From Bacteroidales bacterium (lineage in GTDB: Bacteria > Bacteroidota > Bacteroidia > Bacteroidales > UBA7960), in assembly GCA_003559735.1 (NCBI GenBank), contig PWKN01000117.1, positions 20,663 through 84,662 on the forward strand: a stretch of DNA of 64,000 bases, read 5' to 3'. The notes beneath the pieces are model-generated. The model ran no database searches and was not told where the DNA came from. It worked only from the letters and a program-made list of their open reading frames with translations. Both the position numbers and the translations under genes were made by a program. Numbering within the stretch: the first letter of the stretch is position 1; each line of letters starts with the position of its first letter. Positions 13,551-47,426 of this stretch are shown piece by piece.

Positions 13551-13561
13551 TCTAAAATATT

Positions 13562-21475: not shown

Positions 21476-21479
21476 GTGT

Positions 21480-23278: not shown

Positions 23279-23395
23279 GTTCCTGTAATTTATCGTTATT
23301 ATTTCTGGTAACTCCAATCCGCCACCTGATGGCAACCATTCGCCTGTGTGGTGAAAGATCCCTGTCCGCCACCGGTTCATCCAAATGTATTGTCA

Positions 23396-24001
23396 TCAAA
23401 CCGTTTGCGTTTTGGCCTCTGTATTGGTAAATCCCGACAACCAGTTTTGAATGATGGTCTTTCCGTCAGGGGTAAGGATCGATTCGGGATGAAACTGTAC
23501 CCCGCAAACATCATATTCCCTGTGGCTTATGGCCATGATCCTTCCCTGCTGATCAACGGCATCTACACGCAACTGTCCGGGAAAACCATTGCTGTCGGCC
23601 ATCCATGAATTATAGCGTCCGGCCATAAAACCTGATGCCAGACCGTTGAACAGGTAGTGCCGTGGTGCGCAGATCTCCACCGGCGTAGCCACGCCATGAT
23701 AGACCTTTTCAATATTTACCAATTGTCCGCCAAACACCTGTGTGATGGCCTGCAATCCCAAACAGACACCAAACATGCGCTTCTTTTTATAATATTGTCC
23801 GATCATCTTCAGCAGCAAACCCGCCTCTTCAGGAATACCAGGTCCGGGCGACAGGATGATGCCATCATAAAGATCTATCGCTTCCAGTGCGATCTGGTCG
23901 TTGCGGGCCACATCCAGACTGTGTTCGCCTGTCTCGCGCACATAATGCACAAGGTTCCACGTAAAAGAATCATAATTGTCGAAAACCAGTATGTTTGCCA
24001 T
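23396..24001 (-). CDS. trpG: Anthranilate synthase component II (glutamine amidotransferase)
   Basis: 201 aa with catalytic GVCLGLQA and GVQFHPES. Confidence 0.95.
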   Translation of the reverse strand: MANILVFDNYDSFTWNLVHYVRETGEHSLDVARNDQIALEAIDLYDGIILSPGPGIPEEAGLLLKMIGQYYKKKRMFGVCLGLQAITQVFGGQLVNIEKVYHGVATPVEICAPRHYLFNGLASGFMAGRYNSWMADSNGFPGQLRVDAVDQQGRIMAISHREYDVCGVQFHPESILTPDGKTIIQNWLSGFTNTEAKTQTV

Positions 24002-24051
24002 AATTGATCATTTTATCTATTTGTCCCTTCCTTCCTGTACCCACAGTCTGT

Positions 24052-25467
24052 TCAAACGGTACCGAACCCTTCGGCCATCTGTATGGCTTTTCGCAGTGCG
24101 CTGATCTTCCCGTTCACTTCATTGAGTTCTCCCTGCGGACTGGATTCGATGACGACTCCGGCGCCGGCCTGATAGATCAGTCTGCCTCTCAGGCTAAGGA
24201 ATGACCGGATCATGATGGCATGGTTCAGTGTACCATTGAGTCCGATAAACCCGATTGCTCCCCCGTAAAAACCCCGTGCACGGTCTTCGTATTGATCTAT
24301 AAGCTGTATCGCTTTGTGCTTGGGGGCGCCCGACAATGTTCCGGCGGGGAAAGTATCTGCAAACAAACGGTATTTTTTCGCTTCCTTGTCCAGCCTGCCG
24401 CTAACCGTTGATACCAGGTGTATCACGTGAGAATAGGTTTGCACCTGGCGAAATGTTTCTACTTTTATTTCTGATGCATGTTTGCTCAGATCGTTGCGTG
24501 CCAGGTCGACGAGCATACAATGTTCGGAGTTTTCCTTTTGATTGGCCAGCAACTCCTCTACAAGCGCAGCATCTTTGAGGGGGTCTTCCTGGCGGATCAC
24601 GGTGCCTGCAATGGGATTGATCAGGGCCATGTTTTGGTTCACCTGCAGCTGTGCCTCAGGCGATGAGCCAAACAGCTTATAGGACAAGTAGTCAAAATAG
24701 AACAAATAGGGCGATGGGTTGATTGAGCGCAGCGCCCGGTACACATTGAACTCGTCGCCGGTAAAATCCTGCTCGAAACGCCGCGACAGTACGATCTGGA
24801 ACACATCGCCACGGGCACAGTGTCCGATGCCCTTGTTTACCATTTCCATATAGCTGTCGTCGGTGGTGGGAGATCTTTCTGTTCCTGTTCTGCAAAAAGG
24901 GAAGCAGGTGGCGTTCCGGTTGGCAAGCAATGAACGTATCGCAGGTACGATCGTTTGACGATCTTTGTCCAGCAACTCACAAATGACAAGGGTGTGGTTG
25001 AAATGGTTGAAAGCAATCACCACCTGGTACAGATCATAACGCAACAGGGGTATACGGTCATTGTCGTTATCCGGCCGGCGAATGTTTACGTTATCGAAGT
25101 AATTTACCGCATCATAGGCGGTATAGCCAAAAACACCCGGCATGTGCCGTTCATCAGGAGCGTTTTCAATGGCAAACGAGGCCAGAAAGTCCTCAACAAT
25201 ATCTGTTACCGGCATACTGCCGTCGATGGTACGGGTTTTTTCTTCTGAGTTGTTGTATCTGACTTTCAGATTGTTCCCCTCCATCTCCACCCCAGCCATT
25301 GGTTGCAGGCATATATATGAATACGCGTCCTGCCTGCTGCTGTAGTCGGCGCACTCCAGCAACTGACACTGAGGAAATGCGTCGCGCAACCGCAGATAGA
25401 TGCCTACCGGGGTGAAGGTATCGGCCTGCAGGAGATGAATGTCTGCTTTGAGTTGAATCTTTTGCAT
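24052..25467 (-). CDS. trpE: Anthranilate synthase component I
   Basis: 471 aa chorismate-binding enzyme with C-terminal GFYGGAIGFIG and AGAGVV motifs. Confidence 0.95.
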   Translation of the reverse strand: MQKIQLKADIHLLQADTFTPVGIYLRLRDAFPQCQLLECADYSSRQDAYSYICLQPMAGVEMEGNNLKVRYNNSEEKTRTIDGSMPVTDIVEDFLASFAIENAPDERHMPGVFGYTAYDAVNYFDNVNIRRPDNDNDRIPLLRYDLYQVVIAFNHFNHTLVICELLDKDRQTIVPAIRSLLANRNATCFPFCRTGTERSPTTDDSYMEMVNKGIGHCARGDVFQIVLSRRFEQDFTGDEFNVYRALRSINPSPYLFYFDYLSYKLFGSSPEAQLQVNQNMALINPIAGTVIRQEDPLKDAALVEELLANQKENSEHCMLVDLARNDLSKHASEIKVETFRQVQTYSHVIHLVSTVSGRLDKEAKKYRLFADTFPAGTLSGAPKHKAIQLIDQYEDRARGFYGGAIGFIGLNGTLNHAIMIRSFLSLRGRLIYQAGAGVVIESSPQGELNEVNGKISALRKAIQMAEGFGTV

Positions 25468-25622
25468 CTTTATTCCTGTTTAATATGGATTATATACTGT
25501 TCCGGGTCTTTGAACCCGCCTTTTACAAACTCGCCGAAGACTCCGTTGCCAGACGATCATCATCTGCCGTCGTCACCCTGAAGGGCATTGCCCCGGTTCA
25601 TGTCCTGAGCGATCAGGCACAC

Positions 25623-25651
25623 AAAAAAGCCCGCTTGCGTGTCAAGCGGGC
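25623..25651 (-). terminator. Intrinsic terminator (attenuator) between the trp leader ORF and trpE
   Basis: On the minus-strand RNA: GCCCGCUUG-ACACG-CAAGCGGGC (9-bp stem) followed by UUUUUU. It lies 40 nt after the leader stop and about 155 nt before the trpE ATG. Confidence 0.8.
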
Positions 25652-25691
25652 TTTTTCACAAAATGATGCCTTGAATAATATCTTAACATCC

Positions 25692-25772
25692 CTATGGCCT
25701 ATAGCACCTGACACAGCAACCGAGGCTGTTGTGCCACCACCAAAAGCAAAAGGTATGTTTCGATCTCTTCAT
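25692..25772 (-). CDS. trpL: trp operon leader peptide (26 aa, three consecutive Trp codons)
   Basis: MKRSKHTFCFWWWHNSLGCCVRCYRP*. TGG TGG TGG lies at 25734-25742 on the minus strand. This is the 3' part of track ORF 25692..25946. Confidence 0.75.
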   Translation of the reverse strand: MKRSKHTFCFWWWHNSLGCCVRCYRP

Positions 25773-25792
25773 CTCTGTTCTGATTTCGCCTG

Positions 25793-25800
25793 CAATATTA
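25793..25800 (-). promoter_or_regulatory. Candidate -7 promoter box TAATATTG for the trp leader
   Basis: Minus strand TAATATTGCAG sits 21 nt upstream of the leader ATG. The identical 11-mer occurs upstream of the Phe/Tyr leader at 29283-29293. Confidence 0.35.
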
Positions 25801-25870
25801 AGGATAATTTTTGAATAAACAACCGTATAAAAAAATTTTTTATATTTGCAATTCATAAAAAAATAATTCA

Positions 25871-25878
25871 TACTTTTG
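25871..25878 (+). promoter_or_regulatory. Candidate -7 promoter box TACTTTTG for the asn leader/asnA
   Basis: Exact TAnnTTTG match 34 nt upstream of the leader ATG at 25912. A TTTG lies at 25845-25848. Confidence 0.4.
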
Positions 25879-25911
25879 TCCAGATTATCATTCAAAAAGC
25901 ATACGGAAGAC

Positions 25912-25962
25912 ATGATTGCCTCATACATCATTAATAATAATAACAATAACTGCCCACCTTAG
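25912..25962 (+). CDS. asnA leader peptide (16 aa, six consecutive Asn codons)
   Basis: MIASYIINNNNNNCPP*. AAT AAT AAT AAC AAT AAC lies at 25933-25950. Confidence 0.7.
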   Translation: MIASYIINNNNNNCPP

Positions 25963-26000
25963 TCAAGGCGGTTGCTTTGTTATGCCTGAAAATCATATGA

Positions 26001-26026
26001 GCCCGCCAATTGGCGGGCTTTTTTTA
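26001..26026 (+). terminator. Intrinsic terminator (attenuator) upstream of asnA
   Basis: GCCCGCC-AATT-GGCGGGC followed by TTTTTTT. It lies 38 nt after the leader stop and 42 nt before the asnA ATG. Confidence 0.8.
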
Positions 26027-26055
26027 TTTATTCACTTTTTATTTATTCACTTTTT
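26026..26055 (+). repeat. Perfect 15-bp tandem duplication ATTTATTCACTTTTT x2
   Basis: 26026-26040 equals 26041-26055, read directly. It sits between the attenuator terminator and the asnA ATG. Confidence 0.9.
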
Positions 26056-26067
26056 AAATTAATTATC

Positions 26068-27078
26068 ATGTCAGCAACAACAGAGATCCTGAAAACCGAG
26101 CGAGCCATTGCTTTTGTCAAAGACCATTTTGAAAAGGCCTTGTCGAATCGTTTGAACCTGATCAAAGTGTCATCCCCCATAGCGGTAATGGAAAATACCG
26201 GGTTGAATGATGAGCTTAACGGGGTGGAGCGTCCGGTCAATTTCATGGTGAAGTCCGCCAACGGCAGTCCTGCCGTTATTGTCCATTCGCTGGCCAAATG
26301 GAAGCGCTTACGGTTGAAACAGCTTGATATAGCGCCGGGCATGGGTGTTCTGACAGATATGAGGGCACTCAGGCCAGAAGAAGACTATACCCCGCTGCAT
26401 TCAATATATGTAGACCAGTGGGACTGGGAGCAAAGCATGCTGCCTGAGGAACGCACACTTTCTTTCCTGAAAGCCACTGTTAAAAGAATCTATGAGGCCC
26501 TGAAAGAGACCGAGAAGCTGTTTTGCGAAGCCTTTACAGCATTTTCTCCAACCCTTGCCGACCAGATCACCTTCTTCCATGCCGAAGAACTGGCACAGCG
26601 CTATCCTGATCTTACTCCAAAACAAAGGGAAACTGAAATTACCAGGGAGTATGGTTCTGTTTTCATTATCGGTATTGGGGCCGAACTGTCCGACGGACTG
26701 GCGCATGATGGCCGTGCACCCGATTACGACGACTGGTCGTCAGAGAATGAAGAGGGGAGCATCGGACTCAATGGCGACATCATTGTGTGGAACCATGTAC
26801 TGGAGGATGCCTTTGAAATATCTTCAATGGGGATCCGTGTTGATCCCGAGGCCCTTCAGCGTCAGCTGGTGTTGCGTCGCTGCCCGGAAAAAGCAAGTTA
26901 TCCTTTTCATCAGATGCTGCTCAGGGGAGAGCTGCCACAGAGTATCGGGGGCGGTATCGGACAATCGAGGGTATGCATGTTCATGCTCAGAAAGTCGCAT
27001 ATAGGCGAAGTGCAGGTTGGCATTTGGCCGGAAGGAGAAAAAGAGCGCCTGGAAGCAGAGGGCATCCGGTTGCTATAG
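26068..27078 (+). CDS. asnA: Aspartate--ammonia ligase (asparagine synthetase A)
   Basis: 336 aa. VHSLAKWKR, YVDQWDWE, LNGDIIVWNHVLEDAFEISSMGIRVD and GGGIGQSR closely match E. coli AsnA as I recall it. Confidence 0.95.
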   Translation: MSATTEILKTERAIAFVKDHFEKALSNRLNLIKVSSPIAVMENTGLNDELNGVERPVNFMVKSANGSPAVIVHSLAKWKRLRLKQLDIAPGMGVLTDMRALRPEEDYTPLHSIYVDQWDWEQSMLPEERTLSFLKATVKRIYEALKETEKLFCEAFTAFSPTLADQITFFHAEELAQRYPDLTPKQRETEITREYGSVFIIGIGAELSDGLAHDGRAPDYDDWSSENEEGSIGLNGDIIVWNHVLEDAFEISSMGIRVDPEALQRQLVLRRCPEKASYPFHQMLLRGELPQSIGGGIGQSRVCMFMLRKSHIGEVQVGIWPEGEKERLEAEGIRLL

Positions 27079-27081
27079 CCA

Positions 27082-28851
27082 TCACAGGGGCCACACCATC
27101 ATGATCAACGGCACCCCGATCAGCACGATGATCACCTCAAGGGGTAGTCCCATTCTCCAATAGTCGGTAAACCTGTATCCTCCCGGACCCATCACCAGGG
27201 TATTCGACTGGTGTCCGACAGGTGTAAGGAAGGCACAGGAGCCTCCGACGGCGACAGCCATCAGAAAGGGGTCGGCAGACAATCCGAGACCGTTTGCCAC
27301 GCTGATGGCAATGGGTGCCATCAGCACCACCGTGGCGGCATTGTTTATAATGTCTGACAAGAACATGGTTACCACCAGAATCAGGGTAAGAATTGCCCAT
27401 GGAGGGAATATTTCTCCTGTAAGCAGTATCCGGGAGGCGATCCACGAGGCACCGCCGCTGGTTTCCAGTGCCGTTCCAACAGGGATCATTGCGGCAAGCA
27501 ATACGATCACAGGCCAGTCAATATTATGGTATACGTTTTTAAGCGGAAGGACCCCCGAGAGGACCATACCAAGGGCAGCCATGGAGAACGCCACCTGCAC
27601 GGGCAACAAGCCGGCCACCACAAGAATGATGGCACCCACAAAAACACCCAGTGCCAGCGGGATCTTTTGCTTGTAGCCAATCCGCAAACCGCGTTGCGCC
27701 AGGGGGAGACATCCGATGGTGGTAATGGCATCATCGAGTACATGCTCCCTGCCCTGCAAAAGCAATACATCGCCGGTACGAAAAACCACGTGGTCGAGCC
27801 GGCGGCGGATCCGCTGCTCCTTGCGTGCAACGGCCAGCAAGTTAATGCCAAAACGGCTGCGCATCCGCAAACCGGCCGCCGACTGTCCAACGACCGGAGA
27901 ATCAGGCATCACGATGGCCTCTGTAATACGGATGTTTTTCGAACCCTCCGCATCCTTCCTGAATTTCTTATCGCCTACAAGCTGCACCCCGGTATCATCA
28001 ATGAACGTTTTCAGCTCTTCTGTGTCTGTTTCGATGATGATGATATCGTTGTTTGCAAATGTTTCCTCCGGATTGGGAGCATGGATGCGTTTGCCGGCGC
28101 GGACAAAACCCAGGACCTGTACCCCGGCACCGGTTACTGTGTCGAGTGTGCCCACGGTAAGTCCCTTAATTTTGGATCTGGACGTTACTTTTACCTCCGT
28201 AATGTATTCATCAATACCAAACAGGTCTGTCTCCGATTTGGCACTGATCCGTTTTGGCAACAACCGCCATCCCAGCAGTGCAATAAAGAGAATTCCCGCT
28301 ATGGCCAGACTGATCCCCACAGGAGAAAAGTCAAACATTCCAAACGCCTGTCCGGCATAGTCTTTCCGAAAAGTGGCTATGATTATGTTTGGCGGAGTGC
28401 CTATCAGCGTTGTCATCCCTCCCAATAGCGAAGCAAAGGCAATAGGCATGAGGATATAGGAAGGCGGGTGTCCACTCTTTCTCGCCATGGCAATTGCCAC
28501 CGGCATCATTATGGCCAGGGCCCCTACGTTGTTCATAAAGGCTGATGCAACAGCAACGATCACAGACAAGGTTGTGATCTGCAGCAATAAGCCCTTCCCT
28601 GCCTTCATCACCCACTTCCCCAAAACATCAATCAGGCCCGAGTGTTCCAGTCCTTTCCCAATCACAAGTACCGCCGCAACAGTGATCACCGCCGGGTGTC
28701 CAAAGCCTTCAAAGGCTTCCTGGGGAGAAACAACACCGGCAACAACCATTATGAACAATGCGATCAGCGCCACCGCATCATGCCTGAACCATCCCCATGC
28801 AAACAAAATCAACACAAGCACCAACGTGCCAAAAACAATACCTTGTTCCAT
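27082..28851 (-). CDS. SLC13/DASS-type anion permease with central TrkA-C domains
   Basis: 589 aa. Two polytopic halves flank a soluble region of about 170 aa with a TrkA-C-like duplicated fold. Confidence 0.75.
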   Translation of the reverse strand: MEQGIVFGTLVLVLILFAWGWFRHDAVALIALFIMVVAGVVSPQEAFEGFGHPAVITVAAVLVIGKGLEHSGLIDVLGKWVMKAGKGLLLQITTLSVIVAVASAFMNNVGALAIMMPVAIAMARKSGHPPSYILMPIAFASLLGGMTTLIGTPPNIIIATFRKDYAGQAFGMFDFSPVGISLAIAGILFIALLGWRLLPKRISAKSETDLFGIDEYITEVKVTSRSKIKGLTVGTLDTVTGAGVQVLGFVRAGKRIHAPNPEETFANNDIIIIETDTEELKTFIDDTGVQLVGDKKFRKDAEGSKNIRITEAIVMPDSPVVGQSAAGLRMRSRFGINLLAVARKEQRIRRRLDHVVFRTGDVLLLQGREHVLDDAITTIGCLPLAQRGLRIGYKQKIPLALGVFVGAIILVVAGLLPVQVAFSMAALGMVLSGVLPLKNVYHNIDWPVIVLLAAMIPVGTALETSGGASWIASRILLTGEIFPPWAILTLILVVTMFLSDIINNAATVVLMAPIAISVANGLGLSADPFLMAVAVGGSCAFLTPVGHQSNTLVMGPGGYRFTDYWRMGLPLEVIIVLIGVPLIMMVWPL

Positions 28852-28908
28852 ACGACAAAAATAATTATTTTCGTAACCTGTATGTATTGTTCATAAACAT
28901 TCATAGCC

Positions 28909-29127
28909 ATGGAAAACATCCCTGAACTTTTTTCGGAACGCTTAACCCTGTTTTTGATCATCATCCTCTTTCTGGCGTTATGGGAAACCGCCTGGAAAAT
29001 GATCTCCATGTGGAAGTCGGCCAGAAGAAAGCAACTTGCGTGGTTTATCTGCCTGGGTATCTTCAACACCCTGGGCATCCTGCCCATCGTATACCTGTTG
29101 CTATACAGGAAGGAACCGGCAGCATAG
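28909..29127 (+). CDS. Small two-TM membrane protein (DUF5652-like)
   Basis: 72 aa. WKSARRKQLAWFICLGIFNTLGILPIVYLL resembles that family as I recall it. Confidence 0.5.
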   Translation: MENIPELFSERLTLFLIIILFLALWETAWKMISMWKSARRKQLAWFICLGIFNTLGILPIVYLLLYRKEPAA

Positions 29128-29259
29128 CCACAAAATCCGCCCTTAATCACATGCGCGTATAATTCCCGGCTGGGTCCACATGAAACAGGTCTGCCACAGG
29201 ATGGCCAGACACATTTTTCTGTTGTTTTTTTCGTTTTTAAGAAAAAAATATAAAAAAAT

Positions 29260-29290
29260 TTTGTTTTTATAAATAAAACACCTAATATTG
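29260..29290 (+). promoter_or_regulatory. Candidate promoter TTTG-N19-TAATATTG for the Phe/Tyr leaders
   Basis: TTTG at 29260-29263 and TAATATTG at 29283-29290. The spacing fits the Bacteroides -33/-7 consensus. It lies 27 nt upstream of the leader-1 ATG. Confidence 0.4.
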
Positions 29291-29316
29291 CAGTCGTCAA
29301 AAAGAAAGAAAAGATC

Positions 29317-29385
29317 ATGAACAGCACATTTGTCACCTATTTTTATTTTTACTTTTACTTCTTTAGCGATAAAGGGGTCTGGTGA
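29317..29385 (+). CDS. Phe/Tyr-rich leader peptide 1 (22 aa)
   Basis: MNSTFVTYFYFYFYFFSDKGVW*. Codons 8-16 comprise 5 Phe and 4 Tyr. Confidence 0.75.
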   Translation: MNSTFVTYFYFYFYFFSDKGVW

Positions 29386-29420
29386 TATTGTGTGCAGAAA
29401 ACCGAATAATTAAGTATCCA

Positions 29421-29447
29421 GACCCCGCAAAAGCGGGGTTTTTTTTT
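29421..29447 (+). terminator. Attenuator terminator 1
   Basis: ACCCCGC-AAAA-GCGGGGT followed by a 9-T run. CCAGACCCC (29418-29426) overlaps its 5' arm and is perfectly complementary to GGGGTCTGG (29374-29382) at the end of leader 1. Confidence 0.85.
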
Positions 29448-29464
29448 GTTACGAACTTAACGAT

Positions 29465-29572
29465 ATGATCCGACAAACATCAAATACAGCGTCTGCCCCG
29501 GCTTGTTTCTCAAGCTATTATTTCTTTTTTTATTTTATTCCCCGCTGGGGCCGGCAAATCTGTACCATTTAA
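29465..29572 (+). CDS. Phe/Tyr-rich leader peptide 2 (35 aa)
   Basis: MIRQTSNTASAPACFSSYYFFFYFIPRWGRQICTI*. The run YYFFFYF lies at 29516-29536. The ATG is 18 nt after the terminator-1 T-run. Confidence 0.6.
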   Translation: MIRQTSNTASAPACFSSYYFFFYFIPRWGRQICTI

Positions 29573-29585
29573 CGAACAGAGAAAA

Positions 29586-29614
29586 GGCCCCCGAAATGGA
29601 GGGCCTTTTTTTTT
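29586..29614 (+). terminator. Attenuator terminator 2
   Basis: GGCCCCC-GAAAT-GG(A)GGGCC (7 bp with one bulge) followed by TTTTTTTTT. It ends 15 nt before the pheA ATG. Confidence 0.8.
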
Positions 29615-29628
29615 AACAACATGCAAAT

Positions 29629-30591
29629 ATGAGTTACAACAGCAACATCCATTCAATAGCAATACAAGGAATAAACGGATCTTTTCACCACGAAGCGGCC
29701 ACGTTGTTTTTCCACGACAAACTGAACCTGATTGAGTGCATGACTTTCAGGGAGCTGGTAGGAAAGGTCACCTCCGGGAAGGCCGCCCACGGCATCATGG
29801 CTGTTGAGAATTCGCTTGCAGGAGGCATGCTCCCCAACCTGTCGCTGATCAGGGAGTCGGATCTTTTTGTGAGTGGTGAGCTGTATATGCGCATCAGCCA
29901 GAACCTGATGGCATTGCCTGGTCAGGATATATACAGCCTTACAGAGGTTCATTCACACCCGCTTGCCATCATGCAGTCGGAAGCCTTCTTTAGCTGCTTT
30001 CCGCACATCCGTCTGATAGAGTCGGCCGACACGGCGCTGAGTGCAAAAGACATTGCCGACAATCAGCGCTGGGGGGTGGGTGCCATTGGCAGTGATGTTG
30101 CGGCGAGGCTCTACGGCCTGGATATTCTGGCACCATCTATTGAGACAAACAAGGAAAACTATACCCGGTTCCTGGTTATTGGAAAACAGCCTTCTGTGGT
30201 GAGAGTCGAAGAGAAGGTCAAAGCCAGTGTGGCCTTTGTCATTCCGCACACTCCCGGAAGTCTGTATGAAGCGATGAAACCGCTTGCAGAAGCTGGCGTA
30301 AACCTGACCATGTTGCAGTCGTTGCCCCTGGTTGGTCAAAAATGGCAATATATTTTTCATGCCGACATGATCTTTCAGAATATGGCAGCGGCTACCTCAG
30401 TTATTGAAGCGTTCCGGACCGTTTTAAAACAATTATGGGTGATGGGCATCTATCCCTTGCAGAACCGCAGTGGCAGCAGTACTGCTCCGCGGCAGACAAG
30501 CTATGAGAAGATCCACGGAACCCGGCCGGCCGTTGCCGTCCACAATATACCGGAAACACAAAGCGTCAAAGAAGACAATACCAACAGGTAA
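29629..30591 (+). CDS. pheA: Prephenate dehydratase (PDT + ACT domains)
   Basis: 320 aa with the TRFLVIG motif and a C-terminal ACT-like region. There is no N-terminal chorismate mutase domain. Confidence 0.9.
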   Translation: MSYNSNIHSIAIQGINGSFHHEAATLFFHDKLNLIECMTFRELVGKVTSGKAAHGIMAVENSLAGGMLPNLSLIRESDLFVSGELYMRISQNLMALPGQDIYSLTEVHSHPLAIMQSEAFFSCFPHIRLIESADTALSAKDIADNQRWGVGAIGSDVAARLYGLDILAPSIETNKENYTRFLVIGKQPSVVRVEEKVKASVAFVIPHTPGSLYEAMKPLAEAGVNLTMLQSLPLVGQKWQYIFHADMIFQNMAAATSVIEAFRTVLKQLWVMGIYPLQNRSGSSTAPRQTSYEKIHGTRPAVAVHNIPETQSVKEDNTNR

Positions 30592-30603
30592 AGGATAACT
30601 GAT

Positions 30604-31461
30604 ATGAATATCTGTATCGCAGGATTAGGACTCATAGGCGGCTCTATGGCAACGGATCTGAAAAAGCGGGGTTTTGCCCGGCATATCACAGGTGTTGACA
30701 GCAATGAAAAACACTGTGATATAGCATTGAAAAAAGGATTTGTGGATGAGGTCGCTGGCTTGCGTCAAGGTGTGACAAAAGCAGACCTGGTCATTCTGGC
30801 CACACCAATTGATGTGATCCAGGACCTGTTGCCCGAAGTGCTCGACCTGGCCGGCAACACCCAAAAAGTCGTGACCGACACCGGTTCAACCAAAAAAGGG
30901 CTGACTGCAATCGCAGAAGGGCATCCCAATGGCAGGCATTACGTAGCCGGACACCCAATGGCAGGAACGGAATATTCCGGTCCATTGGCTGCCATCAGCG
31001 GTCTGTTTGACAAAAAGTGCGTGATCATATGCAACCGTCAGCAAAGCGACATTAACGCGCTCAGCCTGGTTGAAAAAATGTATGATGCATTGAACATGCA
31101 GATCATCCACATGCAGTCGGACGTACATGATGTCAGCGCCGCCTATGTTTCCCATATTTCGCACATCGTATCCTTTGCCTTGTCAAACTGCGTGCAGGAA
31201 AAGGAGCGCAACGAAAAACGCATCTTCAGCCTTGCAGGTGGGGGTTTCACATCCACAGTAAGACTTGCCGCCAGTGCCGCGAGTATGTGGACCCCCATTC
31301 TTCTGGAGAATGCAACGCCCGTACTGGAAGCCCTCGACGCATATATCGCCGGATTGTCAGATTTTCGCAAACACATCGCCAACCACGACAGCGACCGGCT
31401 CAATGAAATGATCACAGAGGCAAACAAGATTCAGCAAATTATCAACCTACCAATAAATTAA
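30604..31461 (+). CDS. tyrA: Prephenate dehydrogenase
   Basis: 285 aa with the Rossmann motif IAGLGLIGGSMA and HPMAGTE. Confidence 0.9.
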   Translation: MNICIAGLGLIGGSMATDLKKRGFARHITGVDSNEKHCDIALKKGFVDEVAGLRQGVTKADLVILATPIDVIQDLLPEVLDLAGNTQKVVTDTGSTKKGLTAIAEGHPNGRHYVAGHPMAGTEYSGPLAAISGLFDKKCVIICNRQQSDINALSLVEKMYDALNMQIIHMQSDVHDVSAAYVSHISHIVSFALSNCVQEKERNEKRIFSLAGGGFTSTVRLAASAASMWTPILLENATPVLEALDAYIAGLSDFRKHIANHDSDRLNEMITEANKIQQIINLPIN

Positions 31462-31468
31462 GTTTGTT

Positions 31469-32587
31469 ATGAAAACAACCCAGGCACGACAACAAAGCGC
31501 ACAAAAAAACGGGCATTCCCGTCCGGTATTGATCGCGGGTCCATGCAGTGCAGAATCGCCCCGGCAACTGATGGAAACGGCCAAAGCACTGGCCCTGACC
31601 AATCGTGTAGACTATTTCCGGGCCGGTGTGTGGAAGCCAAGAACGTCACCTGGTTCTTTTGAGGGAGTGGGAACCGAAGCGCTGAAGTGGCTCCAGGATG
31701 TGAAGGAAGCAACCGGACTGAAGGTTGCTACCGAAGCAGGTAATGTGCAGCATGCCCGTGAAGCCCTCAGGCACAATATCGACATGTTGTGGATCGGTGC
31801 ACGTACCGTAAGCAACCCTTTTGTTGTACAGGAAATTGCCGACACGCTGAAAGGGAGCGATGTCGTGGTAATGGTAAAAAATCCGATGGCTCCTGACGTA
31901 GATCTGTGGGCCGGCAGCATAAAACGTTTCCAAAAGGCAGGGATAAAAAATGTGTGTGCCATACACCGGGGTTTTTCCTATTGGACCCGTTCTGTGTTTC
32001 GCAACCATCCGTGGTGGCATCTTCCCATGGAACTCAAAAAACGTCTGCCCGACGTTCCGGTGATCTGTGATCCAAGTCATATCGCCGGCGACCGGAAACT
32101 GGTGCCAATGCTCTCACAAAGGGCAATGGAGATGGGGTTTAACGGACTCATGATAGAGGTGCATCCCAAACCTGAAAATGCACTCAGCGACGCCAACCAG
32201 CAGCTTACCCCTGCCAGCTTCCTGAAGCTGACCGAACAGCTTTTCGGGAACATACGCGACATAGATGGTCAGTACAATATGCTTGACGAACTCCGTGCAG
32301 AAGTGGATGTGATCGACCAGGTGCTGATCTGGGCACTCACCAACCGCATGAAGCTGGCTGGCGAAATTGCCGGGATAAAGAACAAGAACAACATGGAAAC
32401 GCTCCAGCCCCAACGTTGGAAGCAAGTCATTACAACAGCCGTTTCCCGCGCCAGGGAAAGCGGCCTCAGACCTGGCTTCATAGAAAAGCTTTTTGACGAC
32501 ATCCACCACGAATCATTATCGGTACAACGAAACGACGGAGCTGAAACCAAACAAATATCAGGAATTCGTCCTACCTTTGCAATTTGA
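31469..32587 (+). CDS. Bifunctional DAHP synthase (type I-beta) / chorismate mutase (C-terminal AroQ domain)
   Basis: 372 aa. KPRTSPGSFEGVG and CDPSHIAG motifs, plus a C-terminal helical CM domain of about 90 aa (LRAEVDVIDQVLIWALTNRMKLAGEIAGIK). Confidence 0.9.
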   Translation: MKTTQARQQSAQKNGHSRPVLIAGPCSAESPRQLMETAKALALTNRVDYFRAGVWKPRTSPGSFEGVGTEALKWLQDVKEATGLKVATEAGNVQHAREALRHNIDMLWIGARTVSNPFVVQEIADTLKGSDVVVMVKNPMAPDVDLWAGSIKRFQKAGIKNVCAIHRGFSYWTRSVFRNHPWWHLPMELKKRLPDVPVICDPSHIAGDRKLVPMLSQRAMEMGFNGLMIEVHPKPENALSDANQQLTPASFLKLTEQLFGNIRDIDGQYNMLDELRAEVDVIDQVLIWALTNRMKLAGEIAGIKNKNNMETLQPQRWKQVITTAVSRARESGLRPGFIEKLFDDIHHESLSVQRNDGAETKQISGIRPTFAI

Positions 32588-32803
32588 TACGCACCGGAAC
32601 CTGACCATTTACCGGCATAGTGGTGAATGATCATCGCGTACCCTGGTTGCCTCCGGCCTGCCTGCAAAAGTCTGCTTCAGCAGACCGGTATGTGGATGAT
32701 CCGGCATGAACCGGGCCATGCCAATATCCTGGCATACAATGGAATGATTATGACATGGCGGGTTCCATCTGCCGAAACATAAAAAACACAAACAGATGCT
32801 ACA

Positions 32804-33829
32804 ATGGATACGATCTTTGTAAAGGGGAGTTCGCGCAACAGCCGCATCCTTGTTGGCGAAACGATGGACAAACTGCCGGAATACATGCCCGGAAACCACG
32901 TGTTTATCATTACCGATAAGAACGTATATGACATATATGAAACATCATTCCCCCGCTTTCCCGTCTATACGCTGAAACCCGGAGAAGCGACAAAAACCCC
33001 CGATTCAGCGATCGACATTTGCCGCTGGCTAATGGATAATGGCGGCGGACGAGATGCTTTCATCCTGGGTATCGGCGGCGGCATGGTGTGTGATATGGCC
33101 GGCTTTGTCGCCTCAGTGTTTATGCGCGGAGTGGCATTCGGATTCGTTGCCACCTCACTCCTCGCCCAGGTGGATGCCAGTCTGGGGGGTAAAAACGGGG
33201 TAAACCTCGATGGATACAAAAACATCATTGGCACCTTCAACCAGCCACAATTTGTCCTGTGCGACACAACCATGCTGCACAGTCTGCCGGCTGATGAACT
33301 GAAAAACGGACTGGCAGAAGCAGTTAAGCACACGCTCATTGCCGATAAGCAGATGTTTCAACACATACTGAACCATGCAGGAGAGATCCTGGCCCTGGAT
33401 GAAGCACTGATAAACAAACTGGTGAGACATTCCATAGAGGTCAAATCGGCCATTGTTGGCAGAGATGAAACAGAAGCGGGTGAACGGCGCAAACTGAACC
33501 TCGGACATACCTGGGGACATGCAGTGGAAAAAACCGATGGCATTGCTCACGGACAGGCGGTAAGTATCGGACTCTCCTTTGCAGCAAAGCTTTCAGAAAA
33601 AAAACAAATGCTGAGTGCCGGCGACCGCATCACTATAAACGAACTGCTTCATTCACTCAACCTCCCGACAGAAACGGATACGGACCCAAGACAGATCTTC
33701 CGTGCCCTGGTCAGGGACAAAAAGAAGGAAGGCGATCACATCCATTTTGTGCTGATGAATGGCATTGGCCAGGTAACGGTTGAACCACTGTCCCTGTCCG
33801 AACTGGATGATTTTATTCAGACAATATAA
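32804..33829 (+). CDS. aroB: 3-dehydroquinate synthase
   Basis: 341 aa with GGGMVCDMAGFVA and LNLGHTWGHA. Confidence 0.95.
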   Translation: MDTIFVKGSSRNSRILVGETMDKLPEYMPGNHVFIITDKNVYDIYETSFPRFPVYTLKPGEATKTPDSAIDICRWLMDNGGGRDAFILGIGGGMVCDMAGFVASVFMRGVAFGFVATSLLAQVDASLGGKNGVNLDGYKNIIGTFNQPQFVLCDTTMLHSLPADELKNGLAEAVKHTLIADKQMFQHILNHAGEILALDEALINKLVRHSIEVKSAIVGRDETEAGERRKLNLGHTWGHAVEKTDGIAHGQAVSIGLSFAAKLSEKKQMLSAGDRITINELLHSLNLPTETDTDPRQIFRALVRDKKKEGDHIHFVLMNGIGQVTVEPLSLSELDDFIQTI

Positions 33830-33836
33830 AACAAAC

Positions 33837-34802
33837 ATGACACAGCGTTTCCCCGCTGACACATTAAATACAAACCAAACCCAAATGCACACGTTGTATG
33901 CTGTGTTTGGCAAGCCGGTATTGCACAGCAAAAGTCCGCAAATGTTCTCATCCATTTGGGGTGTGCAGGACAAGGTATGCTACACCCGGATCCTGCCCCG
34001 TTCAGCCGCCGATATCATCCATATCGTAAAAATCCTGAATATCCGCGGAGCAAGCATCACTGCTCCCTTCAAAGAGTCGGTGCTGCCATATGTCGATGAG
34101 GCAACCCCTGCCGTTAAGGCAATTGGCGCTGTCAACTGCCTGCACTACGCAGATGGCCTGGTAAAAGGGCACAATACGGACCATCACGGTGTTACCGGTG
34201 CCTTGAAAGAATCGGGCATCGCGCTCCGTAATGCAAAAATCCTGGTGCTTGGTGCCGGGGGAGCGGCCAGGGCTGCCGTATACGGACTGGTATCAGGGGG
34301 GGCGGAGGTAAGCATCAGCAACCGGACAGCATCAAAAGCAGCGGAACTCGCTGATCATTATGGTTGTGCGGTGGTTCCGTGGACCAGCAATGTGCGCATA
34401 CCCCGCTTTGATGCCATTGTGTCAACCCTGTTACCCGAAGCCCTGCCGCCCTTTATCGGCGTGGCAAAATACGATGTCCTGCTCGACGCCATCTATAAAC
34501 CTTCCAGGATGTCGGACCATGCCAGAAGGCAAGGCATCACTGTCATTGGCGGCGAACAGTGGCTGATCCACCAGGGAATAGAAGCAGCTGCCTTTTATGC
34601 CGGCACCAGGCCGGCACCCGGAACGATGGCCGAAAAGATCAATGCGGTCCCCGACAGGGACAAGCTGCAGATATGTGTGCTCCGGAAAAACAATGCAGGA
34701 CTCTGCGGACAACAATGTCCGGACCTTGTTGTTTCGGCCTTTGACCTCGACCAACATACAATCAATCAACTGATCAATGAAGAGAAAAGTTTGGCCTTCT
34801 GA
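33837..34802 (+). CDS. aroE: Shikimate dehydrogenase with a C-terminal extension of about 55 aa
   Basis: FGKPVLHSKSPQMF and VLGAGGAARA motifs. The start could be ATG 33837 or 33885, not ORF start 33780, which overlaps aroB. The tail overlaps aroA by 26 nt. Confidence 0.85.
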   Translation: MTQRFPADTLNTNQTQMHTLYAVFGKPVLHSKSPQMFSSIWGVQDKVCYTRILPRSAADIIHIVKILNIRGASITAPFKESVLPYVDEATPAVKAIGAVNCLHYADGLVKGHNTDHHGVTGALKESGIALRNAKILVLGAGGAARAAVYGLVSGGAEVSISNRTASKAAELADHYGCAVVPWTSNVRIPRFDAIVSTLLPEALPPFIGVAKYDVLLDAIYKPSRMSDHARRQGITVIGGEQWLIHQGIEAAAFYAGTRPAPGTMAEKINAVPDRDKLQICVLRKNNAGLCGQQCPDLVVSAFDLDQHTINQLINEEKSLAF

Positions 34803-36018
34803 AATTGACGGGGTGTTGCATGCACCCCCCTCAAAGAGCGCAGCCCAGCGAGCCATCCTGATTGCATCGCTGGCAAATGGTGTTTCTGAAATCTTGCGTA
34901 CAGGCACCTGCGATGATGTGATGGCAGCAACCGGTGTTTGCCAGACCCTTGGCGCAACAATAAGCCGGCAGGGAAACAGTCTGCATATTACAGGAGGCAT
35001 CCGCACACCCGGACAGCCGTTGCATTGTGGTGAAGCCGGACTGGCGATCAGGATGTTTTCAGGGGTGGCCGCCACACTTGACGGTAACGTAACCCTTACC
35101 GGTGAGGGGAGCCTGCTCAGGCGACCGATGGACACCATAGAGTCTTCGCTGAAAGCACTAGGGGTAAGCTGCCAGACAACAAACGGGTTTTTGCCCGTTC
35201 ATGTAAGGGGTCCGCTTAAAGGGGGCCATGCGGTCATAGACGGATCGCTGAGTTCGCAAATACTCACCGGGATACTGATCGCCGCCCCGTTTGCAGAAAA
35301 AGACACCCATCTGGCTGTTACCTCTTTAAAAAGCAAACCATATATCGACCTTACCCTGGAAATAATGGCTGCATTTGGTGTGGAAGCACATAACAACAAC
35401 CATACAGATTTCTTTGTGCGGGCTGGACAACGATATGGGGGCAGGCACTATGTGGTTGAAGGCGACTGGAGTGGAGCGGCGTTTTTGTTGGTGGCCGGGG
35501 CCGTTGCCGGACGGGTTATGGTGGGCAACCTGAACCTGAGCTCATTCCAGGCCGACAAGAAAATCCTGCATGCACTGCGAATGGCAGGTGCCCGGGTTAC
35601 AGAAGGAAACAACTGGGTTGAAGTGGCACACCAGCCATTGGGACCCTTTTCTTTTGACGCCACCCATTGTCCCGACCTGTTTCCTCCCCTTGCAGCACTC
35701 GCGTCAAATTGCCGGGGAGAAAGCCGTATTACAGGAGTGGAACGTTTACGGGCAAAAGAGAGCGACAGGGCCAGCACGTTAAAGGACATTTTTCAGCACA
35801 TGGGAATAGAGATCCGGCTGGAGGACAATACCATGTATATTTCAGGAGGCAAAAAACAAGGTGCAACAGTCAGCGCACACGGCGACCACCGCATTGCAAT
35901 GGCTGCTGCAATTGCCGCGCTTAATGCAGACGGACCGGTAACCATAGATGATGCACAGGCTGTTGATAAATCCTATCCTGATTTTTTTGACGACCTGAAA
36001 CACATCATGACAGAATGA
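34777..36018 (+). CDS. aroA: 3-phosphoshikimate 1-carboxyvinyltransferase (EPSP synthase)
   Basis: 413 aa with PPSKSAAQRA and GDHRIAMA. Confidence 0.95.
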   Translation: MKRKVWPSEIDGVLHAPPSKSAAQRAILIASLANGVSEILRTGTCDDVMAATGVCQTLGATISRQGNSLHITGGIRTPGQPLHCGEAGLAIRMFSGVAATLDGNVTLTGEGSLLRRPMDTIESSLKALGVSCQTTNGFLPVHVRGPLKGGHAVIDGSLSSQILTGILIAAPFAEKDTHLAVTSLKSKPYIDLTLEIMAAFGVEAHNNNHTDFFVRAGQRYGGRHYVVEGDWSGAAFLLVAGAVAGRVMVGNLNLSSFQADKKILHALRMAGARVTEGNNWVEVAHQPLGPFSFDATHCPDLFPPLAALASNCRGESRITGVERLRAKESDRASTLKDIFQHMGIEIRLEDNTMYISGGKKQGATVSAHGDHRIAMAAAIAALNADGPVTIDDAQAVDKSYPDFFDDLKHIMTE

Positions 36019-36192
36019 GAACCATACAACAACCTGTTTTTTGCATAACCTGCCCTATAGAAGCGTATCATCCGGGTCAGATGCAAGGCGGCAAAAGCCG
36101 CCGGCACAGGTTAAGCTGAAACCCAGGCAAACTGCTTCACCGGTTTTGCTGCTGCACAGCACCATCCGGGGTGAACAAATAATAATGTACAC

Positions 36193-37197
36193 ATGAATAC
36201 CTTTGGACGATTATTCAAAACACAAGTGTTTGGTGAGTCGCACGGACCATTTATTGGGGTTGTTGTTGACGGATGCTGTCCGGGCATTCCGCTCCTGGAG
36301 GAAGACTTCCTGGCAGACCTCGGCAGGCGCAGGGCGGGGGCAAAAGGGACTACCCCCCGTAAAGAGGAAGACATCCCGCAGATCACCTCAGGTGTATACC
36401 AGGGACATACCACCGGGGCCCCGCTGTGCATCGTGTTTGCAAACAAGAACGTACGTTCAGGGGATTATGCACACCTTGCCAGTACGCCCCGTCCCGGACA
36501 TGCAGACCTGGTAGCAAACAGACGGTTTGGCGGATTTAACGATCCGAGGGGTGGCGGTCATTTCTCCGGCAGACTTACACTGGCGCTGGTGGCCGCCGGG
36601 GTGGTGGCAAAAAAAATGCTCGGCAATGTCCACATCAGGGCACAACTGATCGAAGCCGGGGGGACCACAGATATTGAACGTGCCATTGATGATGCCCTGA
36701 AAGAGGGGGACAGCATCGGGGGGATTGTGGAATGCCGTGCCAATAATGTACCCGTCGGATGGGGAGAACCATTCTTCGATGCTGCAGAGTCGGTGATCAG
36801 CCATCTGGCCTTTGCCGTGCCAGCCATCAAAGGTGTTGAGTTTGGCTCAGGGTTCTCCGCAGCGTCAATGAAAGGCAGCCTGCATAACGATCCCATTGTC
36901 GACAAAACAGGAAAAACCGCTTCCAACAATGCAGGAGGGATAACCGGCGGACTAACCAATGGGAATGAGCTTGTGTTCCGGGTGGCCGTGAAGCCAACGT
37001 CGAGCATCGCCAAAAAACAACGATCCATCAACACGAAAACAAACACCATGGAAACCCTCGAAATAAAAGGCCGACACGATGCCTGTATCGCACTCAGGGT
37101 TCCGGTGGTCATAGAGGCCATCACCGCCATGGCACTGGCCGACCTGATGCTTCTGTTCAATGCACCCAAAGGGACGCACACTCGCCCACGAGGCTGA
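36193..37197 (+). CDS. aroC: Chorismate synthase
   Basis: 334 aa with FGESHGP and GRHDAC motifs. The C-terminus is affected by the 37-bp direct repeat at 37129/37199. Confidence 0.93.
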   Translation: MNTFGRLFKTQVFGESHGPFIGVVVDGCCPGIPLLEEDFLADLGRRRAGAKGTTPRKEEDIPQITSGVYQGHTTGAPLCIVFANKNVRSGDYAHLASTPRPGHADLVANRRFGGFNDPRGGGHFSGRLTLALVAAGVVAKKMLGNVHIRAQLIEAGGTTDIERAIDDALKEGDSIGGIVECRANNVPVGWGEPFFDAAESVISHLAFAVPAIKGVEFGSGFSAASMKGSLHNDPIVDKTGKTASNNAGGITGGLTNGNELVFRVAVKPTSSIAKKQRSINTKTNTMETLEIKGRHDACIALRVPVVIEAITAMALADLMLLFNAPKGTHTRPRG

Positions 37198-37235
37198 AAT
37201 GGCACTGGCCGACCTGATGCTTCTGTTCAATGCAC
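37129..37235 (+). repeat. Perfect 37-bp direct repeat duplicating the aroC 3' end
   Basis: ATGGCACTGGCCGACCTGATGCTTCTGTTCAATGCAC occurs at 37129-37165 and again at 37199-37235. A 33-bp unique spacer between them contains the aroC stop. Confidence 0.9.
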
Positions 37236-37340
37236 ATCGCCTGCGGCAGGAAAAAAAGCACACAACCACCAGGTAAAAAATATTTTTTTGTTGTGAATGA
37301 AAAAAAACCATTACTTTTACACCCGGAAAAAAACCACATC

Positions 37341-37400
37341 ATGAACCCTTTTGTCAACCATCATCAGCATCATCGTCATACAACCCCAACGGGGTGTTGA
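37341..37400 (+). CDS. hisL: his operon leader peptide (19 aa)
   Basis: MNPFVNHHQHHRHTTPTGC*. Five His fall within seven codons (37359-37379). Confidence 0.75.
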   Translation: MNPFVNHHQHHRHTTPTGC

Positions 37401-37435
37401 ACCGAGCTGCTTTTGATAGTATAATACATACCAGG

Positions 37436-37461
37436 CCCCGGGAAACACCCGGGGTTTTTTT
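37436..37461 (+). terminator. his attenuator terminator
   Basis: CCCCGGG-AAACA-CCCGGGG followed by TTTTTTT. It lies 35 nt after the leader stop and 24 nt before the hisG ATG. Confidence 0.85.
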
Positions 37462-37484
37462 ATGCAGGAAACACCAACAAGAAT

Positions 37485-38348
37485 ATGAAAAATGACACAC
37501 TAACACTGGCTGTTCAGAAGAGCGGACGACTAAGCGAAGGATCGATAAATCTTTTAAAGCAATGCGGCATAAGGATACAAAACGGACGAAACCATCTGAA
37601 AGCCAAAGCCACGGGATTCCCCCTCGAGCTTATCTTCCTGAGCGACGATGACATACCACAATATGTTGAAGACGGCGTGGCTGCAGCGGGCATCCTGGGC
37701 CTGAATGAGGTGCTGGAAAAACAACGGAACGTGACTGTCATCAGGAAACTTGGTTTTTCCCGGTGCCGTTTGTCTGTCGCAGTGCCACGCAACACAGACT
37801 ATCCGGGACATGCATACCTTAACAACAAACGCATTGCCACTTCATACCCGGCAATACTGAAACAGTTTCTCGACGACAACAAACTCAGTGCAGAGATACA
37901 CCCCATCAATGGTTCGGTGGAGGTAACACCAGGACTCGGACTGGCAGACGCCATTTTTGAGATCGTGAGCTCCGGGGGTACCCTGCTGAGCAACGGGTTA
38001 AAAGAGGTCGAAACCGTAATGAAAAGCGAAGCGGTGCTGATCGCAAAACCTGATCTGCCCGAAACGATCAGTGCACTGCTCGAAAAACTCCTGTTTCGCA
38101 TCCAGGCGGTACAAAAAGCCGCCAACAATAAATATATTCTGCTCAACGCCCCTGAAGACAAGCTGGACAGGATCTCTGCCCTGATCCCCGGAATAAAAAG
38201 TCCGACAAAAATGCCACTGGCAGAAAAAGGATGGTATTCTCTCCATTCGGTGATCAGTGAAGATGATTTCTGGGAAGTGATCGATAATCTAAAGGAAGCC
38301 GGAGCAGAAGGCATTCTCGTTGTTCCCATCGAAAAGATGGTTACCTGA
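37485..38348 (+). CDS. hisG: ATP phosphoribosyltransferase (long form)
   Basis: 287 aa including the C-terminal regulatory domain. It is the first gene after the His leader. Confidence 0.92.
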   Translation: MKNDTLTLAVQKSGRLSEGSINLLKQCGIRIQNGRNHLKAKATGFPLELIFLSDDDIPQYVEDGVAAAGILGLNEVLEKQRNVTVIRKLGFSRCRLSVAVPRNTDYPGHAYLNNKRIATSYPAILKQFLDDNKLSAEIHPINGSVEVTPGLGLADAIFEIVSSGGTLLSNGLKEVETVMKSEAVLIAKPDLPETISALLEKLLFRIQAVQKAANNKYILLNAPEDKLDRISALIPGIKSPTKMPLAEKGWYSLHSVISEDDFWEVIDNLKEAGAEGILVVPIEKMVT

Positions 38349-38359
38349 CGTGCCATAAT

Positions 38360-41364: not shown

Positions 41365-41503
41365 AAAATCCTGCCGCGACGGATCTTGCTGATCACTGGG
41401 AGCGCTGCAAGGAGAGAAAGTTGCCGGAGGTTCGCAGGCGGATAAAAAACAAAGAAAGACCACTGGTTGTGCGCAACCAGTGTAAACGATTAAAAGGAAA
41501 AAG

Positions 41504-42813: not shown

Positions 42814-42854
42814 AAAACCATATGAACTGATAATACGTAAACCCAAAAACAATC

Positions 42855-47409: not shown

Positions 47410-47426
47410 ACAATGGAGGATTGTTA

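Follow-up and report, generated by a model that had tools for sequence, protein, structure and literature searches.

Candidate leader-peptide attenuators upstream of trpE, asnA, pheA, and hisG in an uncultured Bacteroidales lineage

Leader ORFs, terminators, and downstream operons

We analyzed a 64-kb stretch of DNA from a Bacteroidales bacterium (contig PWKN01000117.1; the whole stretch is called the window here) in which five short open reading frames (sORFs), each packed with codons for tryptophan, asparagine, phenylalanine/tyrosine (twice), or histidine, lie upstream of genes for the synthesis of the same amino acids. The initial annotation had placed these codon runs (WWW, six consecutive N, YFYFYFYFF, YYFFFYF, and HHQHHRH) before trpE, asnA, pheA-tyrA-DAHP synthase/chorismate mutase, and hisG. 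All five were read in the sequence where it had located them, and NCBIfam and Pfam (gene map with an ORF cut-off of 100 amino acids [aa]) identified the downstream genes as expected. On the minus strand, the Trp leader is followed by trpE-trpG-trpD-trpC-trpF-trpB-trpA and an extra DAHP synthase gene (17861-25467). The other leaders are on the plus strand, where the Asn leader precedes asnA, coding for aspartate--ammonia ligase (26068-27078; TIGR00669, 391.7 bits, above the cut-off), two Phe/Tyr leaders (Phe1 and Phe2) precede pheA, tyrA, and a DAHP synthase/chorismate mutase fusion (29629-32587), and the His leader precedes hisG-hisD-hisC/B fusion-hisH-hisA-hisF-hisIE (37485-44354).

The Trp sORF extends from the ATG at 25772 to the TAG at 25692 (minus strand) and encodes MKRSKHTFCFWWWHNSLGCCVRCYRP, with WWW at 25742-25734. 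The Asn sORF (25912-25962) encodes MIASYIINNNNNNCPP, with the six Asn codons at 25933-25950. The Phe1 sORF (29317-29385) encodes MNSTFVTYFYFYFYFFSDKGVW, with its F/Y run at 29338-29364, and the longer Phe2 sORF (29465-29572) encodes MIRQTSNTASAPACFSSYYFFFYFIPRWGRQICTI, with YYFFFYF at 29516-29536 and SSYYFFFYFIPRWGRQICTI as its C-terminal part. The His sORF (37341-37400) encodes MNPFVNHHQHHRHTTPTGC, with five His codons within 37359-37379.

As had been claimed from the first inspection, a GC-rich hairpin with a U-run stands behind every one of these sORFs and ahead of the first structural gene (five of five), at 9 to 38 nt from the leader stop codon. The Trp terminator (25653-25623, minus strand) consists of AAGCCCGCUUG-ACACG-CAAGCGGGCUU followed by U6, has a stem energy of -24.4 kcal/mol, and ends 155 nt upstream of the trpE ATG (25467). 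The Asn terminator (25999-26026; GAGCCCGCC-AAUU-GGCGGGCUU and a U-run, -18.4 kcal/mol) ends 42 nt upstream of the asnA ATG. Both are located in the intergenic region between the divergently transcribed trpE and asnA, each facing its own gene, and therefore they cannot be the 3' ends of genes. Phe1 has a hairpin with a T-run at 29418-29447, Phe2 a bulged stem followed by U9 at 29582-29614, ending just 14 nt before the pheA ATG, and the His leader a hairpin (AGGCCCCGGG-AAACA-CCCGGGGUUU with a U-run) at 37433-37461, 23 nt before the hisG ATG. Across the five leaders, stem energies were between -15.8 and -24.4 kcal/mol and the U-runs comprised 6 to 9 residues. The leaders themselves are only ca. 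110 to 150 nt long.

A motif similar to TAnnTTTG, the known -7 promoter consensus of Bacteroidota, was found upstream of every leader but Phe2, and from this resemblance each copy is a putative promoter. The Trp leader has TAATATTG (25793-25800, minus strand; one mismatch to the consensus) 21 nt upstream of its ATG, and the same candidate motif stands ahead of Phe1 (29283-29290, plus strand) and before the leaders of the related loci L165 and L167. The probable promoter of the Asn leader, TACTTTTG (25871-25878, plus strand), aligns with TAATTTTG or TATCTTTG in relatives, and that of the His leader, TACTTTTA (37312-37319, plus strand), is identical in the related locus L161. Since the Phe2 sORF starts 17 nt past the first terminator with no promoter motif in between, the two Phe/Tyr leaders are arranged in series.

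Cognate runs of this kind are rare in the window. In its six-frame translation, WWW occurred once, at least seven F/Y in eight residues twice (both of them the Phe leaders), at least five N in six residues twice, and at least five H in seven residues three times. A scan for an sORF with such a run and a perfect-stem terminator recovered four of the five leaders and nothing else, Phe2 being missed because its terminator stem is bulged. These results uphold the view that the arrangement exceeds chance. The additional N-run, NNNNNPP at 47423-47437 (minus strand), was considered as an Asn leader and rejected, as it is off-frame, lies at the end of a 93-aa ORF (47427-47708), and has neither a terminator nor an Asn gene.

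Two ORFs run antisense to the leaders, one over the trp leader (25485-25814, plus strand) and another over the Phe1 promoter and leader (28809-29336, minus strand). Neither had a Pfam match, and L168, a public contig that is nearly identical, has both annotated as genes (5856-6185 and 9181-9699). They are probably spurious gene calls that mask the leaders, which in turn can be used to flag such calls.

Conservation of the leaders in related genomes

The closest homologues were found in Bacteroidales metagenome-assembled genomes (MAGs), with named matches to Bacteroidales, Tenuifilaceae, and Williamwhitmania MAGs. The identity of pheA to the best GTDB representative was 59 to 60%, and one Logan contig was 98% identical. 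Together with the TAnnTTTG-like motifs, this confirms the first impression of a Bacteroidota genome.

To place the Phe/Tyr leaders in a broader context, we collected 80 pheA loci from Bacteroidales, Flavobacteriales, Saprospiraceae, Chitinophagales, and Marinilabiliales. Within 400 nt upstream of the gene, 75 of them had an sORF with five or more F/Y in eight residues, compared to none of the control windows located 3 kb downstream of the pheA loci, and 55 of the 75 also had a terminator by a strict rule. Two complete tandem F/Y leaders were found at 11 of the 80 loci, or 14 when the search was widened to 700 nt, and tandem leaders appeared also before hisG (L161) and asnA (L111 and L143). The Phe1 orthologues of L167 and L165 end in ...KGVW or ...RGLV. 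L167 departs from the scheme in that its second terminator-like hairpin (14075-14120) has no sORF.

Two variations in the composition of the aromatic leaders were observed. In L161 (11038-11506), whose asnA is 89% identical to that of the window, no pheA lies between asnA and tyrA, and the two tandem leaders before tyrA are almost Tyr-only (MGTKKTYYSRHYYFSV and MTNHSTHCSTYYYYAGV..., with YY..YYF and YYYY). Both passed the fold test described below, and they are a possible natural switch of specificity. The other variation is the presence of Trp codons inside many F/Y runs upstream of pheA (e.g., FWFSFYFY or FWYFFYFYFF; L007, L008, L011, L013, L022, and L058), a composition that hints at leaders sensing all three aromatic amino acids in some of these genomes.

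Homologous WWWH leaders precede trpE in L001, L004, and L167, and His leaders precede hisG in L001 and L161 (examples of both kinds from L001, L004, L161, and L167 are MNVYKHIVWLWWWHAALIAAVKRYGP, MHISIHTASFWWWHGNIGWCVKRYWHS, MTVRIHTHHHHFYLQ..., and MNCTIHHQHHSTSYPKGC). The his operon of L161 (17708-17966) carries two tandem His-rich sORFs, each of them followed by a hairpin and a U-run.

For asnA, exact-protein look-ups provided a set of closer loci, and an Asn leader with a terminator was present in eight of eight. The asnA genes of L161, L163, L165, L166, and L167 are 65 to 89% identical to that of the window. The peptide motif NNNNNN(C/S)PP is kept in L161, L163, L165, and L166 and becomes NNNNCPP in L167 and NNNFPP in L081. 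In this close family, the sequence is near-invariant from the Asn codons through to the terminator, the promoter side and the N terminus of the peptide have diverged, and AAT and AAC have been exchanged synonymously within the run. A different family of Asn leaders, with the pattern NN[LF][LF]NNNSNNN...GRL, was found in Hymenobacter aquaticus, one Bacteroidales MAG, and one Rikenellaceae MAG (e.g., MALYNNSNNLFNNNSNNNQIRAGRLL...). When metagenomes were scanned for asnA, N-run leaders were detected in only 7 to 10 of 76 distant loci (mostly at 51 to 63% identity), among them L100, whose sORF contains nine Asn codons, and L143, where two Asn leaders stand in tandem. In L100 (83-218) and L140 (3809-3904), a GGAG-like Shine-Dalgarno sequence precedes the start of the asnA that follows the N-run sORF, and for this reason Asn leaders may exist outside Bacteroidota as well.

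Alternative pairing and the proposed attenuation mechanism

Each leader contains a candidate antiterminator strand. In the Trp leader, GUGUCAGGUG (25714-25705, minus strand; codons 20 to 23) can pair with the 5' arm and loop of the terminator. In the Asn leader, AAGGCGGUUGCU (25965-25976), located just past the stop codon, has as partner either CCCACCU (25953-25959) or the terminator 5' arm. The last codons of the Phe1 sORF contain GGGGUCUGG (29374-29382), complementary to CCAGACCCC of the terminator, and in Phe2 the strand GGGGCC (29547-29552) can pair with GGCCCC of the second terminator or with GCCCCGGC (codons 11 to 13). The His strand CGGGGUG (37390-37396) has as partner CCCCG of the terminator 5' arm or the CCCC run in the preceding AACCCCAA (37382-37389), in the latter case closing a three-nucleotide AAC loop. 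The initial annotation had described terminator-complementary segments for Trp, Asn, Phe1, and His; all four are there, and its list was incomplete in omitting that of Phe2.

We evaluated these pairings as a function of ribosome position. The leader was cut just before the 3' arm of the terminator and only the RNA located 3' of the ribosome was folded, assuming a footprint up to the A site plus 12 nt and no forward pairing of the RNA behind the ribosome; the readout was the probability that the terminator 5' arm is sequestered. A ribosome mask that allowed RNA to pair across the ribosome had been dropped because it produced artefactual helices enclosing the ribosome. Sequestration for a ribosome placed at the regulatory codons versus one at the stop codon was 0.98 versus 0.42 for Asn, 0.80 versus 0.03 for Phe1, 0.99 versus 0.12 for Phe2, 0.74 versus 0.23 for His, and 0.79 versus 0.56 for Trp, the last falling to 0.28 with the ribosome at codons 18 to 22. 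In silico, the antiterminator pairing thus excludes the terminator, is favored by a stalled ribosome, and is lost as the ribosome progresses. The spacer of each leader was then dinucleotide shuffled (200 trials per leader, with stall minus stop as the statistic), and the observed difference was reached by 5 of 200 shuffles for Asn, none of 200 for Phe1, 3 of 200 for Phe2, and 5 of 200 for His.

For the Trp leader, the relevant evidence is comparative. The same antiterminator is found in all four leaders compared (window, L001, L004, and L167), and it shows a compensatory change, GUGUCAGG with CGCUUGACAC in the window being replaced by GUUAAGCG with CGCUUAAC in the other three. Across the phylum, 72 F/Y leaders of Bacteroidota pheA loci gave a mean stall-minus-stop difference of 0.53, compared to 0.15 for shuffles (Mann-Whitney p ~2e-31), and in all 14 Asn leaders tested sequestration was higher with the ribosome stalled than at the stop codon. 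The Asn antiterminator had 95% of its cells paired in seven relatives. The initial annotation had suggested looking in relatives for conserved codon runs and compensatory stem changes. The runs proved to be conserved and the Trp antiterminator supplied such a change, while the Asn stems are invariant and show no covariation, which neither supports nor contradicts the pairing.

The anatomy of the five elements, their conservation, and the dependence of the alternative pairing on ribosome position lead us to consider it very probable that they are classical ribosome-mediated transcription attenuators. All five have the two components that characterize this class, a cognate-codon short ORF in the 5' leader and an intrinsic terminator between this ORF and the first gene. 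As proposed from the sequence at the outset, attenuation is therefore supported in silico, by the shuffle comparison in four of the five leaders, by the compensatory change in Trp, and by the persistence of the elements in relatives. In the mechanism that we envisage, each attenuator would be driven by its own Bacteroidota-type promoter, save Phe2, which would be read in series behind Phe1, and a ribosome would translate the leader ORF before RNA polymerase has left the leader. When too little charged tRNA is available for the amino acid in question (Trp, Asn, Phe/Tyr, or His), the ribosome would stall on the codon run, leaving region 2 (the segment located at the leader stop codon or close to it) free to pair with the terminator 5' arm; the terminator would not form and the biosynthetic genes would be transcribed. 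With plentiful charged tRNA, the ribosome would cover region 2, the hairpin with its U-run would form, and transcription would stop before trpE, asnA, pheA, or hisG. The tandem Phe/Tyr leaders would be expected to multiply the effect. The signs pointing to translation of the sORFs consist of the conserved ATG frame and the synonymous changes of Asn codons. Termination at the U-runs is predicted from the hairpins themselves, and a response to the cognate amino acids would be expected by analogy with the RNA-seq read-through published for leaders of the same phylum in Flavobacterium psychrophilum (see below).

Several observations weigh against this interpretation. Equilibrium folds of the full-length leaders, with or without a ribosome mask, preferred the terminator at every ribosome position. 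Such dominance is expected, since the choice in an attenuator is kinetic, and as a consequence the argument relies on a proxy for the kinetics in which the ribosome footprint is assumed. The Trp leader failed to outperform its shuffles (44 of 200 reached the observed stall-minus-stop difference), and the statistic was left unchanged. The stop codon of Phe2 lies ca. 20 nt beyond region 2, so termination there would need a ribosome in transit or the re-pairing of region 2 with codons 11 to 13. Among the relatives, the second His leader of L161 shows no difference between stall and stop, and the second F/Y sORF of L165 (14101-14190) has no terminator and ends 17 nt before pheA. The proportion of Tyr in the leaders, Y/(F+Y), did not track the presence of tyrA beside pheA (75 loci; 0.42 versus 0.40, p = 0.69), and for this reason the Tyr-only leaders of L161 stay a single anecdote. 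All the support for this organism is computational and, to our knowledge, coupling between RNA polymerase and the lead ribosome is not established in Bacteroidota.

Among the alternatives, the one that survives best, although improbable, is that the sORFs act at another level (translational coupling or re-initiation, mRNA stability, or Rho-dependent polarity upon uncoupling) and that the hairpins with U-runs are not the point of decision. The short distance between the Phe2 terminator and the pheA ATG and the terminator-less sORF of L165 fit this possibility, and re-initiation by closely spaced leader genes has been proposed, Bacteroidetes included (PMC4833913). However, canonical intrinsic terminators with the energies and U-runs described above are present in all five leaders, each has an antiterminator strand whose pairing depends on ribosome position, and the Trp terminator is too far from the trpE start for coupling.

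Still less probable is that termination is real and controlled in trans by a TRAP-like protein, by uncharged tRNA (T-box), or by a small molecule acting on a riboswitch, with the codon runs being binding sites or incidental. Firmicutes use regulation of this type for the same operons, and the evidence for sORF translation here is indirect. Nevertheless, no T-box or amino acid riboswitch family of Rfam matched the leaders of the window or its relatives, even at E values up to 10, and leaders of this size speak against such elements. Furthermore, what is conserved across very different sequences is the ATG frame with its cognate codons, including the AAT/AAC exchange, and the position of the antiterminator follows that of the stop codon. 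Finally, the reading of the leaders as coincidence, i.e., low-complexity short ORFs in AT-rich intergenic DNA next to ordinary or bidirectional terminators of neighboring genes, can draw on the one further N-run (47437, minus strand) and the two H-runs of the window that have no regulatory context, but it is effectively refuted by the comparative data, given that every run specifies the amino acid that the gene behind it serves to make, that the Trp and Asn terminators sit between divergent genes, and that the elements persist in the pheA loci, with none in their control windows, and across relatives with diverged asnA.

Known systems, implications, and neighboring genes

The ribosome-mediated attenuators that we propose resemble trpL, pheL, and hisL of Escherichia coli, which also have, upstream of the operon, a cognate-codon short ORF followed by an intrinsic terminator and a mutually exclusive antiterminator set by the lead ribosome. 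An Rfam search of the 5' regions, suggested by the initial annotation, indeed had as nearest families precisely those of these three leaders, all below the gathering threshold: Trp_leader RF00513 with 27.0 bits (gathering 41; 25621-25724, minus strand), Phe_leader RF01859 with 28.6 bits for Phe2 and 25.8 bits for Phe1 (gathering 55), and His_leader RF00514 with 21.8 bits (gathering 49). At the gathering threshold, neither the window nor seven related loci had any match, and at E values up to 10 there were only sub-threshold matches to proteobacterial leader families, derived mostly from the terminator and the codon run. With all scores below gathering, there is no demonstrable homology to the enterobacterial Rfam families.

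There are also differences from the E. coli leaders. The Phe leader of the window would, according to its codons, sense Phe and Tyr jointly and is duplicated in series. In truncated folds, the Trp and Phe antiterminators form even without a ribosome, in contrast to the 1:2/3:4 default of trpL. In addition, the host phylum uses TAnnTTTG promoters and initiates translation without Shine-Dalgarno pairing.

The initial annotation had held that such a battery of leaders in Bacteroidota deserves a systematic description, and the literature does not support a view of the battery as undescribed. Using conditional read-through in RNA-seq, Guerin et al. (2021) described leader-peptide attenuation elements of the ilvE, hisG, pheA, and trpE operons in Flavobacterium psychrophilum (PMC9723704 supplement, SI D9, Table S7). 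That set belongs to the same phylum, covers the same operons, and has very similar peptides (hisG MSLNQLHHHHFHICSQAKC and pheA MNTNNTFYSNNSFYFYWNIGRDCYMVI); it derives from Flavobacteriales, in contrast to the uncultured Bacteroidales lineage studied here, and includes no reported Asn/asnA element or tandem leaders. Weinberg et al. (2010) described the cis-regulatory Bacteroid-trp motif (RF01692), a Trp-codon leader upstream of trpE in Bacteroidetes (PMC2864571). The Trp leader of the window is alike in kind and position but is not matched by that model, which gave no hit at E values up to 10 in the window (25400-37600) and none at gathering in L001, L004, and L167. As judged from these searches, the WWWH leaders of Bacteroidales appear to fall outside the current Bacteroid-trp model. 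The Trp, Phe/Tyr, and His leaders are thus further instances of a kind already published in Bacteroidota. What remains of the claimed novelty is the presence of an Asn leader in front of asnA, together with the recurrence of tandem arrangements, both of which appear to be unreported. Predicted attenuators in Bacteroidetes/Chlorobi were reportedly also listed by Vitreschak et al. in 2004 and Lopatovskaya et al. in 2010. No description of an Asn leader or an asnA attenuator was found in Rfam or in the literature searched, which did not cover the tables of those two studies.

In E. coli, asnA is under the control of AsnC, a DNA-binding protein that senses free asparagine at the promoter. The same gene would be under asparagine feedback here, but the sensor would be a ribosome reading six Asn codons, i.e., the charging of tRNA-Asn. 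Regarding the tandem arrangement, serial modules on one leader are known from tandem T-boxes, tandem riboswitches, and the two-sORF mgtCBR leader of Salmonella. As in those cases, two sensing and termination modules in series are expected to sharpen the response; unlike them, both Phe modules have the structure of a complete leader-peptide attenuator, with its own sORF and its own terminator.

If the proposed mechanism holds, the five elements would annotate blank 5' regions and explain how the synthesis of Trp, Asn, Phe/Tyr, and His is controlled in an uncultured Bacteroidales lineage. An Asn-specific leader peptide would lengthen the short list of amino acids sensed in this way, and the recurrent tandem attenuators of the phylum would provide a natural test of the joint action of two switches. 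The abundance of leaders would also imply that, in a phylum that does not use Shine-Dalgarno sequences, the lead ribosome does not fall behind RNA polymerase. Firmicutes, without such coupling, use T-boxes instead. We regard as evenly balanced the broader proposition that Asn-sensing attenuators before asnA are an undescribed class widespread in Bacteroidota, with at least two unrelated families and sometimes in tandem, which together with the near-universal F/Y leaders would show that tight coupling of the lead ribosome and RNA polymerase is routine despite initiation without Shine-Dalgarno pairing. Were this true, the leaders would constitute a tractable natural reporter for ribosome-polymerase coupling.

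Some features of the surrounding genes deserve mention. A second DAHP synthase (DAHP_synth_1; 17861-18892, minus strand) is located at the distal end of the trpEGDCFBA operon, and the Trp attenuator may therefore also govern the entry to the common aromatic pathway. Downstream of the DAHP synthase/chorismate mutase fusion lie aroB-aroE-aroA-aroC, in the same orientation; neither a leader nor a terminator was found in the gaps at 32588-32803 and 36019-36192 within this cluster. In the his operon, a single 562-aa ORF (39676-41364, plus strand) contains histidinol-phosphate aminotransferase and imidazoleglycerol-phosphate dehydratase domains (hisC-hisB fusion), and the same fusion is found in L161. 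Between a DASS symporter gene and the Phe leader there is a 72-aa ORF (28909-29127, plus strand), shorter than the cut-off of the gene map, that encodes a small membrane protein of the DUF5652 type (Pfam, 89 bits). The gene order 5' of asnA (window ca. 9856-17779) is apparently kept in L161, L163, L165, and L166, with pantoate ligase, Asp decarboxylase, an S41 peptidase, and a 185-aa HD-like ORF, of which the S41 peptidase is the one confirmed by Pfam in the window. In these four loci, the HD gene or an Oxidored_FMN gene adjoins asnA directly, and in the window the whole trp operon intervenes.

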